A DNA stretch of 64,000 nt from Macrostomum lignano (taxonomy: Eukaryota). Both the position numbers and the translations under genes were made by a program. A model generated the notes under the pieces. That model was not told where the DNA came from and searched no databases. It saw only the letters and a list, made by a program, of their open reading frames with translations. Positions 17,919 through 20,945 of the stretch are shown here, piece after piece (positions within the stretch are counted from its first letter, which is position 1; every line of letters begins with the position of its first letter). The stretch is from assembly GCA_002269645.1 (NCBI GenBank), contig NIVC01000301.1, forward strand, positions 232,460 through 296,459. Direction: 5' to 3'.

Positions 17919-20900
17919 TTAACGAGGTCTTAGGTTGTACGTATGACCGACAGGTGGTGCGTTTGTTGTTTGTGTTTCGGCGTGTGCAGTGGCAATGTGT
18001 TTATTTGTTGTTTTTGTGTGGTCTGGATTTTGTAGGTCTGGGAGGAATGTAGTGTCGTTAGTGATACGTTTTAGACGTTGAATGTGAACATAGAACTGAG
18101 GTTGATGTGGATCCTGGATATTAGCGAGGCGTGCTGATACTAGAGAAGGCTTAGGTAGGTCTCGCTTATGTCGTTCTATGACATCTTTTCTCTGATAGGT
18201 TCCATTTACTACCTTCAGGAAAACATTCTTATCCATATCCTTAAGCGCGATTGGTATTTCTTGGTCGGAGAGGATTAGTTGCTCGTCCTTGTTTTTACAT
18301 TTCAAGTGTGTGTAGCTTGGTTGCTTTGGAAATGTAAGAGCCAAATCTCCTGAGTCGGCAAGGAAGGTGTTAGATAGCAGTTTCCCTTGAACAGTGTGAT
18401 ATTTTTGCAGCTTGCAGTCAATTTCAGTTTTTACTTCCCATGCAGTGAAATATTTGCGGGTTCGGCTGGGCTCCTCATATCGGGAATCCGATCTATATTC
18501 AATTTGGTATCGATAGTCATGGAAATAAATCGGTGCTAGGGGTAAATTTTGAGCTTCTTCTTTGTTGTAGTTAGGGGTAGAACAATATCCAGAGCTGTAG
18601 TGACACTGGTCGAGTGGTAGCTGTAAGGATTCCATGTTGTCAAATGGATTGTGGTAGAATAAAACATTTCGGATGAGGTAGCTATTGTAGACTGAGTATG
18701 TAGGCCATCGTGATTGATGATAATGGACATATCTTCCATCGGCTACATTTTTTGTGCGAAATAGCTGTGCTCCGCTGGCGGACGTCTCATGAAGTTTTAA
18801 TTGACCATCTTCGGAAAACAGAGTTTGATTCCACCGAAGGCATTCTTCTTGTGATACCATCATCGAAGTTTGCCAATACCTGATTCGGTTCCATTGTACC
18901 AGCCAAACCTTTTCAATTTCATCCTTGTCTCGGAAGCACACAATTCCCATTTGTCGATGCTTCTTTGTATTTGCTTTGTATATTTCAATAGTTAGTGGTA
19001 GTGGCTTGGTTTGGTTTGTCTTAAAGTAACTGCATTTGATTTCCGTAGGAATCTTGTAAATGACTGGCTGGATGTCTCCATCAGTGGGACAGATCATTGG
19101 AGATGGAGACGGCAGTACCGTGGGAACAATTGCCATCATCAAGATCGTGAGGAAGCATTGCAGTAGCGGATGTTTTTTCTTTCGTCTTGTTGGTACTGGT
19201 GGAGTGTCTTCAATCTCGTCATGACTATCTTCAGGATACGGCGGAGGAGTAAGGCGAGTCGAAAAGTGCCATTTGTTGGAACATGGTAATGGTGTGGGTG
19301 GCTGCGATTGCAACATCGGACGCATAAAGTTGGTTGATTTTGATATATTGGTAAGATGTGTAGTTGTATTCTCATCAGTTGGAGTGTTAACCGGTTCCAT
19401 TATTGTTATCGGTTCATCATATTCGCTTTCATAGTCTAGGTTCATTGAAACATATGTGTCATCCTCCGTCTGTACGAACTTTTCATCTGTCGAATGGTTA
19501 GATTGTGTGTTCGTGGCCTTGTCATGTTTCCATTTTTCGTGGACTGGACTAGGGGAGACAATATTTTCATAGTCTGGTTCCTGTGTTGGAGGTGTTTCTG
19601 ACAGGTCTATATCGTCGACTAGGACCTGCAACATGTCAACGCTTTCTTCAAAGATGTTTTGAGAAGTTGCTGGATCTCTGTCTTCTTCAAGTGTTGTCAT
19701 TTCTTTACGATCCTGGAAATTGTCATCTCGGTGAGTTTCCGAAAGATTGTCGATCGTCGGAACTTTAAATAGATTGCTTTGTTGCTTAGAAATAGTTTGT
19801 TGTTGTCTTTTGTTTTCTCGGGAGACTGGACTTGCTTTAGAAGAGGTAGGAATGGGTGGATCTTCTTCAAACAGAGAATCCATCATGCAGCTACTTTCGC
19901 TGCTTGTGCTATCTTTTCGTTTTTCAAACTCCTCAAGGACATTGATTGTGAAATCCGGCATAAGATCCTCTATCTTAAACTCTGGTTCGATGACTTGAGT
20001 GTATTCCGGTTCAATAGCTTGAGCATATTGTCTGCGGACCTGAGTAGGCTGTCTTGGAGGAGGAGGATTTCTTTGTTGTCGATAAGGTACCAAGGCATTT
20101 CCTTGTCTATTCTGTGGTGGGTTCCAATTGCGATTTTGAGGACGAGTCCAATTTTTTCTTCTGTTGTCATTATATTGTCTTGGATTGCCACGTGATCGGC
20201 AGTCTCTGGTGTAATGACCAATTCTTCCACAGGTGTAACAAGTGGGTGGCGGAGCGTATCTCTGTCGCTGTGGCATGATTGCAGAAGTTTGGTACTGCTG
20301 CATGAGTTTGCTCAATTGTTCTCCCAATTGTGTCGTATCACTACTACGAGAAGTCAGGAGTGGGGCACTTGCTTCCCATTGCATGCCGCAACGAATTAAT
20401 TGTTCCTCTGTCTCAATGGTTTCTCTTAACAACCTGTCTCGCAGCGAAGGTTGAGCATTATTAATGACATGGAGGATTAGGCTTTGTTCTTGGTCAGCAA
20501 GGCGTTGTCTTTCTCGTGCAGCTAGTTCTGCTGGTCCGATAGGCTGAGCTCCTGGGTTCGGTGGTGGTGGCTGGTGCAACGCTTTAATAATTTTGCGGAC
20601 GTCATCGACGAAAGTAAGGAAGGATTCCGTCGGACTCATTTTTCGATTATGAAGTTTGTGTAGAAGCACAGATCGATTGGTTCCACATCTGGCGAATTGT
20701 GCTCTCAGTTGTGTAACTAAAGTATGATAGTCTTGCTGTGCGGCGGCATTTAGTTTGCCATAAATTTCTCGAGCAGTACCTTCTAACAGTGGAGGAAGAA
20801 GAAGTGCCTTTTCTGGATTTTGTAGTCCGTATTCGCGAGTTACAAGGTCGAAGTGTTCAATGAAGGTGTTAAAATCTTTATCCATGGTATACATTCCAAC

Positions 20901-20945
20901 AGTTTCCTTGACATCGCGATGCACTGTAGGGTTTCTTCGAGCCAT
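17919..20945 (-). CDS. Gag + envelope-glycoprotein-like polyprotein (1008 aa from first ATG)
   Basis: Retrotransposon Gag helical domain (FNTFIEHFDLV...KALLLPPLLEGTAREIY...ESFLTFVDDVR), CCHC knuckle CYTCGRIGHYTRDC, acidic/Pro linker with PPPY, internal signal-like LLQCFLTILMMAIVPTVLP, Cys-patterned ectodomain (MICP, GIVC, SQEEC, CHYSSGYC), RHKR, and the end VHIQRLK...YNLRPR. Confidence 0.85.
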   Translation of the reverse strand: MARRNPTVHRDVKETVGMYTMDKDFNTFIEHFDLVTREYGLQNPEKALLLPPLLEGTAREIYGKLNAAAQQDYHTLVTQLRAQFARCGTNRSVLLHKLHNRKMSPTESFLTFVDDVRKIIKALHQPPPPNPGAQPIGPAELAARERQRLADQEQSLILHVINNAQPSLRDRLLRETIETEEQLIRCGMQWEASAPLLTSRSSDTTQLGEQLSKLMQQYQTSAIMPQRQRYAPPPTCYTCGRIGHYTRDCRSRGNPRQYNDNRRKNWTRPQNRNWNPPQNRQGNALVPYRQQRNPPPPRQPTQVRRQYAQAIEPEYTQVIEPEFKIEDLMPDFTINVLEEFEKRKDSTSSESSCMMDSLFEEDPPIPTSSKASPVSRENKRQQQTISKQQSNLFKVPTIDNLSETHRDDNFQDRKEMTTLEEDRDPATSQNIFEESVDMLQVLVDDIDLSETPPTQEPDYENIVSPSPVHEKWKHDKATNTQSNHSTDEKFVQTEDDTYVSMNLDYESEYDEPITIMEPVNTPTDENTTTHLTNISKSTNFMRPMLQSQPPTPLPCSNKWHFSTRLTPPPYPEDSHDEIEDTPPVPTRRKKKHPLLQCFLTILMMAIVPTVLPSPSPMICPTDGDIQPVIYKIPTEIKCSYFKTNQTKPLPLTIEIYKANTKKHRQMGIVCFRDKDEIEKVWLVQWNRIRYWQTSMMVSQEECLRWNQTLFSEDGQLKLHETSASGAQLFRTKNVADGRYVHYHQSRWPTYSVYNSYLIRNVLFYHNPFDNMESLQLPLDQCHYSSGYCSTPNYNKEEAQNLPLAPIYFHDYRYQIEYRSDSRYEEPSRTRKYFTAWEVKTEIDCKLQKYHTVQGKLLSNTFLADSGDLALTFPKQPSYTHLKCKNKDEQLILSDQEIPIALKDMDKNVFLKVVNGTYQRKDVIERHKRDLPKPSLVSARLANIQDPHQPQFYVHIQRLKRITNDTTFLPDLQNPDHTKTTNKHIATAHAETQTTNAPPVGHTYNLRPR

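Follow-up and report, generated by a model that had tools for sequence, protein, structure and literature searches.

We analysed a window of 64,000 nucleotides (nt) from Macrostomum lignano (assembly GCA_002269645.1, contig NIVC01000301.1, positions 232,460 to 296,459), in which an element of 6,890 nt with long terminal repeats (LTRs; 15347-22236) carries a single open frame of 1008 amino acids (aa) on the minus strand, from an ATG at 20945 to a stop codon at 17919. This element is non-autonomous, has been spreading recently and derives from a type of element already described, in which the envelope gene lies between gag and pol. We consider it probable that it arose by an in-frame deletion in a gag-env-pol element whose envelope protein (Env) resembles glycoprotein B (gB) of herpesviruses, that it made five insertions with the help of another element, and that its remaining half of Env is a passenger unable to fuse membranes. 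The original prediction, made from the letters of the window, had given the coordinates of the open reading frame (ORF) only. Unless stated otherwise, the features of the element listed below are on the minus strand.

The frame begins with Gag (residues 1-260; 20166-20945), which holds one CCHC knuckle (residues 235-250, 20240-20199; PF00098, E 4e-5, above the Pfam cut-off), the sole family found in a Pfam scan of the 1008-aa protein. In the sequence, an acidic proline-rich linker with a PPPY motif at residue 567 (19236-19247) precedes a basic stretch and a hydrophobic segment (residues 589-619, 19089-19181), read from hydropathy as a putative internal signal or signal-anchor. The motif KKKHP at residue 589 (19181) stands before the hydrophobic run, and residues 592-619 form the only segment of the protein with a Kyte-Doolittle mean of at least 1.6 (peak 2.06). 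Then comes a region predicted to be the front half of a class III ectodomain resembling gB (18162-19100; domains I and II with the predicted fusion loops), up to a furin-type site RHKR at residue 925 (18173-18162). Eight Cys of the frame fall between residues 619 and 883, and sequons are located at residues 644, 706 and 914. The end of the frame (17919-18134, including the stop codon) corresponds to the last 71 residues of the parent polyprotein, i.e. the end of the integrase C-terminal region, with VHIQRLK at residue 953 and YNLRPR at residue 1003. The presence of all these parts in one frame, as first described, was confirmed with their positions. The frame had also been said to lack a transmembrane anchor. 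This holds for its C-terminal part, where the hydropathy scan found no transmembrane segment, but the N-terminal hydrophobic segment, if uncleaved, may itself anchor the protein.

We searched the genome with the last 403 residues of the frame and obtained 103 matches. In the copy C717, query residues 1-337 and 329-403 lie 4.4 kb apart within one open frame of 2,480 aa, which contains Gag with its CCHC knuckle, the signal, the ectodomain, RHKR, a hydrophobic segment (1191-1223), protease (PR), reverse transcriptase (RT, with YVDD), RNase H (RH) and integrase (IN), and which ends with VHIQRLK...YNLRPR as in the window. Its Pfam families, all above cut-off, follow the order PF13650, PF00078, PF17919/PF17917, PF17921 and PF00665, and no BEL/Pao-specific family was listed. 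These Pol domains are absent from the window copy. The window and C717 share 99.3% nucleotide identity on either side of a gap of 4,416 nt; at the protein level, there are 9 differences in the first 940 residues and none in the last 71 (100% identity). By its sequence, the parent is a single-frame gag-env-pol element. The following features of Ty3/gypsy elements were found: TG..CA LTRs, a primer site, a polypurine tract, a 4-nt target-site duplication (TSD) and, in the parent, a Pol in the order PR-RT-RH-IN.

The gene order is not peculiar to C717. Env lies upstream of Pol in 26 of the 26 examined loci holding both parts, and unbroken Gag-Env-PR-RT-RH-IN frames were found at L021, L023, L036, L059, L081, L082 and L098. 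This layout spans families that are just 24-28% identical in Env, and it recurs in two unrelated database proteins (P0013 and P0059). A sister family has LTRs of 864 nt, against 913-925 nt in the window's family, and an Env 63-65% identical; a UniRef protein of this sister family (P0003), labelled Macrostomum lignano, shows 65% identity over the matched Env part. Word-based homologue searches yielded one protein each. As for the tail of the window frame, its position and its 100% identity to the parent identify it as the end of a gypsy-type integrase. The predicted profile similarity did not appear: the 71 residues alone matched no Pfam family and gave one unrelated match in a PDB search, while the longer tail of the sister family gave sub-threshold matches to SH3_Tf2-1 (E 0.14) and Integrase_p58_C (E 0.4). 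As the tail is not recognisable by profile, its identity was settled by position instead.

With the gene order of the parent, one deletion is enough to bring Gag, half of Env and the end of integrase into the same reading frame. Relative to C717, 4,416 nt (1,472 codons) are missing, in frame, and with them the back half of Env and its anchor, protease, RT, RNase H and most of integrase. The junction (18130-18134) shows a 5-nt microhomology and is located 9 codons past the furin-type site RHKR. One of the two origins initially proposed, a gag-env-pol parent with one deletion from the middle of env to the integrase tail, is therefore documented by a 99%-identical copy.

Next to the junction, we identified a patch of 410 nt (18137-18546) with 18 differences from C717 and C2596, the closest full-length copies. 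At 15 of these sites the window agrees with C262, from which it departs at 9 sites of the patch, while outside the patch the window and C717 show only 0-3 differences per bin. A C262-like patch amid C717-like sequence indicates two templates. We consider a template switch in reverse transcription the likely origin of the deletion, with a jump from one co-packaged RNA to another in the course of minus-strand synthesis; alternatively, the patch could stem from gene conversion that affected the founder copy at a later time. A selection test was uninformative: over 937 codons, the window and C717 show 12 synonymous and 9 non-synonymous differences, most of them within the patch. In addition, the LTR of the window appears from sequence comparison as a second mosaic. 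It differs by 41-44 substitutions, bunched in its middle part (21497-21907), from the LTRs at the four other sites of the derivative, and this middle part is 99% like the LTRs at C3857 and C2674, which have no primer site. The patch and the mosaic in the LTR alike suggest that RNAs packaged together have recombined.

Then, we investigated the spread of the derivative. The junction was found with 100% identity at 6 of 30 genome matches, which is a lower bound. One of them (C2828) has the flank of the window copy, so the six matches represent five distinct sites. Apart from C2828, no copy without target duplication or at a shared flank was seen. The target duplications of the five sites are TCGA, GACG, CTCG, CCGA and CTCG, and their LTR pairs show 0, 0, 1, 0 and 2 substitutions. 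The copies display 4-10 internal differences from the window over 5 kb, and the frame is open in all five complete copies. The same junction at five sites with separate target duplications implies movement after the deletion. Because a copy without pol cannot transpose alone, a helper has to be supposed, and helper enzymes acting in trans likely drove the spread. The element is thus non-autonomous, being devoid of pol and yet making new insertions after the deletion, and these five fresh insertions point to trans-complementation. In three runs (X1, X3 and X6), sequence contigs span the junction and extend for 255 letters or more to either side; the joint in X17 has just 25 letters on its short side, and X10 gave no bridging contig among the pieces listed. 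Of the deleted part, divided into 13 bins, 10 bins are covered by X1, 5 by X3, none by X6 and all by X17.

Two other deletion derivatives were found. The one at C4582 (L051) is also in frame and fuses the start of Gag to the end of integrase (TSD GTAT). The other is a mini-element of 3.2 kb present at C3022, C1130 and C70 (L063, L064 and L065; TSDs ATTT, TCTA and CAAT), whose joint was found in contigs of 4 of the 4 runs examined.

We also investigated the fold of Env. The ectodomain of the parent lies between the hydrophobic segments 592-619 and 1191-1223 and matches PF24664 (Monjiviricetes fusion) below the cut-off (E 5.7e-5). Among 15 aligned family members, this profile was matched by 10 (best E 2.7e-10) and Glycoprotein_B weakly by 3. 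A profile of the 15 Env sequences reached gB of Epstein-Barr virus (EBV) with an E of 4.7e-14; as a single-sequence PDB search with the ectodomain gave 0 matches to E 10, gB was reached by the profile alone. The structural model obtained for the ectodomain of the parent is of modest quality (pLDDT 61.5, pTM 0.39). All its listed PDB matches are herpesvirus gB (best E 8.3e-18), and the viral proteins that match it best are nyamivirus-like glycoproteins, entomopoxvirus proteins and gB. For the window fragment, the model built with 31 sequences has a pLDDT of 76.2 and a pTM of 0.64, with 82-98 per block in model residues 31-180 and 221-310 and less than 50 in the tail. A helix of this tail (338-350, pLDDT < 50) was rejected as evidence, since alignment A2 had set domain III of the relatives opposite the window tail.

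This fragment matches EBV gB (Foldseek, E 6.8e-10) and residues 138-456 of gB from herpes simplex virus 1 (HSV-1; Z 9.2, rmsd 7.0, 218 residues), which we take to be domains I and II. The Z-scores are 9.2, 8.9 and 8.6 for gB, 7.2 for Chandipura G, 6.0 for thogotovirus GP and at most 5.6 for PH domains. The motif VWLVQW forms the tip of a long hairpin (model strands 51-70 and 73-83), at the place expected for fusion loop 1. In the ESM Atlas, the best score (0.89) was obtained with a Monjiviricetes_fusion cluster and serves as a lead only. As modelled, Env is a class III fusogen nearer to herpesvirus gB than to rhabdovirus G. The class III claim of the original prediction is therefore upheld by the gB profile and structure matches, but not its rhabdovirus G-like affinity, gB coming first and Chandipura G lower (7.2 vs. 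9.2). The retained part of Env models as domains I-II of gB, domain I with its predicted fusion loops being inserted in the PH-like domain II. The domain III helix, present in the parent model (helix 325-372), is deleted from the window copy, and domains IV-V and the anchor are likewise gone. In distant families (L081, L083, L084, L085 and L089), the middle of Env carries a Thr-rich mucin-like insert of ~230-290 residues, flanked by a furin-type site on either side.

In the parent, Gag would remain in the cytosol while the internal signal would thread Env into the endoplasmic reticulum (ER), in a flavivirus-like manner; the anchor (1191-1223) would stop the transfer, leaving the tail and Pol in the cytosol. 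In the derivative, everything past the signal, including the integrase tail, would be in the ER lumen. The natural truncation, which parts gB domains I-II from the rest, offers a ready test of this predicted threaded topology. The derivative retains all of Gag and could with it package its own RNA, whereas protease, RT, RNase H and integrase would be needed in trans. Without the domain III helix, domains IV-V and the anchor, the product could neither trimerise nor fuse. Moreover, the predicted partners of Cys 619 and 638 in the EBV gB alignment (1013 and 968, respectively) are both lost, this pairing following what we take to be the disulfide pattern of gB. With these two Cys unpaired, ER retention and decay would be favoured over secretion. 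The C-region of the signal is proline-rich, with a Pro within -3 to +1 of every candidate signal-peptidase site in the subfamily, while the sister family has an A-T-A site. A Pro near the signal-peptidase site disfavours cleavage, so cleavage looks poor in the window's subfamily. Compared with secretion, Gag-tethered retention in the membrane and subsequent decay seem the likelier fate; a secreted protein with an interfering role is possible, but nothing supports it.

Several points weigh against a helper-driven derivative carrying a passenger half-Env. Its topology, cleavage, retention and helper are all things that we infer. The fold matches of Env have low TM-scores (0.23-0.36), beside the pTM of 0.39 of the parent model. 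The RNA status of the runs X1, X3, X6, X10 and X17 was guessed, none being recorded as RNA. Furthermore, CG occurs in 5 of 5 target duplications of the derivative but in 1 of 12 for other copies of the family (Fisher test, P = 0.001, chosen post hoc). Two duplications read later (CGGA and ACAC) make the other copies 2 of 14, and 13% of the 4-mers of the fetched loci contain CG. A search for the helper by target-site preference failed: a CG-containing 4-mer was found at 1 of 10 sister-family 5' flanks, in a set where a matching 3' end was found for just 1 of 10. Finally, the open frames in the five copies and in C4582 could reflect selection, although the copies are too young for selection on the open frame to be judged.

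The last point leads to a different reading, in which the open frame is selected for the benefit of the element: it would dodge nonsense decay, and a membrane-anchored Gag would package its own RNA before that of the helper. We regard this as unlikely. Gag, CCHC and the hydrophobic segment are indeed whole in the derivative, and both of the amplified or LTR-complete deletions with their two ends in the ORF (the window's and C4582) are in frame, for which the chance is 1 in 9. However, the mini-element at C3022, C1130 and C70 ends outside the ORF and wholly lacks Env, yet occupies 3 sites; other copies carry a 64-nt out-of-frame deletion, and the sample is tiny for a frame bias.

Interference with full-length elements appears improbable in either of two forms. 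In one, a defective-interfering element would out-replicate and out-express its parent, with a Gag-tethered or secreted gB fragment poisoning or blocking full-length elements, a Refrex-like control based on a class III fusogen; in the other, held to be just as improbable, a soluble domain I-II, cut at the signal and at RHKR and then released or displayed, would block their entry or assembly, to the profit of a defective-interfering element or of the host. The break 9 codons after the furin-type site leaves a self-contained, confidently modelled module. The derivative occupies 5 sites vs. 2 for the closest full-length copies (lower bounds), and X6 has a contig across the deletion with 0 of 13 bins of the deleted part covered. 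A precedent exists in the accessible text of PMC9245640, where Refrex-1 is a secreted truncated Env of the feline endogenous retrovirus (ERV) ERV-DC. If the window fragment were secreted and inhibitory, Env-based interference would extend from vertebrate retroviruses to class III fusogens of invertebrates. The Pro residues at all candidate signal-peptidase sites and the two unpaired Cys argue against it. In addition, 4-10 substitutions over 5 kb among copies leave no trace of host selection, and the derivative has preserved its LTRs and cis signals, as a mobile parasite would. A receptor-binding domain is retained in Refrex-1, whereas domains I-II of gB are, to our knowledge, not known as one.

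Downstream of the frame, the element carries two accessory ORFs. ORF 1 (17137-17787, 216 aa) is Cys/His-rich and RING-like and shares 25% identity with ORF 2 (16465-17064, 199 aa), which contains a RING finger (PF13920, E 7.6e-8, above cut-off) and has 139 matches in the genome. Two or three RING-like paralogues lie 3' of pol in the window's family and in the sister family (L023, L036, L038 and L059). From their sequences, the RING ORFs are likely E3 ligases directed at host defence. A splice acceptor (17067/17066) is located 2 nt 5' of the ATG of ORF 2. One X6 contig, with 29 letters on its short side, joins it to a consensus donor in the 5' LTR (21408/21407) with GT..AG ends, and an X1 contig departs from the element at the same donor. 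The presence of this GT..AG joint suggests that X6 is RNA. Behind the stop codon, at 17902, a contig shares a stretch with the element and then runs into unrelated sequence in 4 of 4 runs. In the literature searched on RING fingers and additional ORFs of retroelements, no description of RING genes was found, and a term search of the available part of PMC5408684 returned neither RING nor ubiquitin.

As the element splices, the gap could be an intron, the window copy being a retrocopy of a spliced RNA; an assembly error was considered together with it. Both are highly improbable. The gap ends are GC..CG with 5 shared letters, which is not an intron, and the junction is present at five independent sites and in contigs of other runs. 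As for the second origin initially proposed, the replacement of pol by Env in a gag-pol element, it found no support and can be dismissed, being refuted by the 99%-identical full-length copy C717; the Env-before-Pol order at 26 of 26 loci also speaks against it.

The PPPY motif had been presented as a late-budding motif. It is at the same place in C717 and C583 but ~45 residues earlier in C391, and the linker of the sister family has no PPxY, a PPNY being found in its Env tail instead. Given that its position is not kept among relatives and that a PPxY arises in 11% of linker shuffles, PPPY is not supported as a conserved late domain and is a weak candidate. The Env tail of the parent (residues 1224-1300 of the L021 polyprotein) contains PTAP and YPKI, both lost in the derivative. 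In most of the families examined, PTAP lies in the stretch from the anchor to the protease; it is absent in L023, L082, L092 and L096. The chance per Env tail is 2% and 5% for these tail motifs. On sequence grounds, PTAP and YPxI/L are better late-domain candidates than PPPY.

The cis signals of the element are intact. The 5' LTR (21312-22236), with its mosaic middle part and the splice donor (GAA/GTAAGT), and the 3' LTR (15347-16271) are both 925 nt long, bounded by TG..CA and identical (0 mismatches). The primer-binding site (21293-21309) is complementary to the 3' end of tRNA-Val; in 6 of the 18 genome loci scanned, a tRNA-Val gene lies at the match to the primer site (five with anticodon AAC and one with GAC). 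A polypurine tract, read from the sequence, is located 5' of the 3' LTR (16272-16285). Comparison of the flanks gives the target-site duplication TCGA (15343-15346, second copy 22237-22240), which has no strand. The element interrupts one of the two terminal inverted repeats of a Tc1/IS630-like DNA transposon in decay (15123-15346 and 22237-23875; DDE_3, E 5e-5, below cut-off), whose intact opposite arm contains TCGA once. An Rfam scan of the element gave a single match (E 0.29), far under the cut-off and read as chance.

The rest of the window contains, from 1 to 14600, nested remains of mobile elements. These presumably include pieces of a gypsy RT (53-1246), several IS630/Tc1-like elements with inverted repeats and, at 6260-8430, a Harbinger-like transposase with a Myb-like partner, as judged from their motifs. 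From 27900 to 62100, host genes were observed with introns filled with minisatellites. From their translations, we take these to include a kinesin-2-like gene (about 30000-36000, minus strand), an AlkB-like gene (45400-47500) and a flightless-like LRR-gelsolin gene (52500-62000).

Finally, we compared the derivative with known systems. Non-autonomous LTR derivatives with internal deletions and defective retroviruses keep their cis signals intact, lose pol at microhomologies and spread in trans. In contrast to this class, the derivative of the window has Gag joined to half of Env and to the integrase tail in one frame, owing to the gene order of its parent. With herpesvirus gB, it shares the profile and fold match, the Cys pattern and a furin-type site in the middle of the ectodomain, but the identity is only 10-14% and the window keeps the region of domains I-II only. 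The likeness to Refrex-1 concerns a signal followed by the N-terminal half of Env with no C-terminal anchor. According to the accessible text (PMC9245640), Refrex-1 is a gammaretroviral SU of class I that contains a receptor-binding domain and has a demonstrated antiviral action. The window copy has instead a predicted class III fragment behind Gag in a still-mobile element.

The gag-env-pol order itself is not new. In the portion of their paper available to us, Chary and Hayashi (eLife 2026; PMC13524379) describe GAG-ENV-POL 'ancient errantiviruses' with an HSV/gB-type ENV in Platyhelminthes, Nematoda and Bryozoa. As far as that portion goes, these elements share with ours a Ty3/gypsy-type Pol, a gB-type Env between gag and pol, LTRs and multiple young copies. 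Mlig_errantivirus_2 (supplementary file 1 of the same paper) has the same 12-nt primer site, but its LTRs of 863-864 nt fit the sister family and not that of the window (913-925 nt), a comparison made by description and not by sequence. According to the same source, Sacco et al. (2022) reported non-canonical nematode ERVs with env before pol, which share the ENV-before-POL order and an RNA-virus-like glycoprotein and differ in their host. Our literature search found 'gag-env-pol' used in PMC13524379 alone and no M. lignano LTR retrotransposon with an envelope; a term search of the available part of PMC4408406 returned no flatworm passage. The terms 'single ORF', 'in-frame', 'non-autonomous' and 'RING' are absent from the main text of PMC13524379. 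Its inclusion rule asks for intact GAG, ENV and POL, so the window copy is a derivative of a member and not an intact member; as truncated elements were removed in that study, such derivatives are not covered by its accessible part. No derivative of this kind was found in the literature, although subscription papers, Repbase or some supplement rows of PMC13524379 may hold one. The amplified derivative fusing Gag to a gB fragment, the recombination patch at its junction and the spliced message of a RING gene are new here, while its odd polyprotein order is explained by a published GAG-ENV-POL layout and an ordinary deletion.

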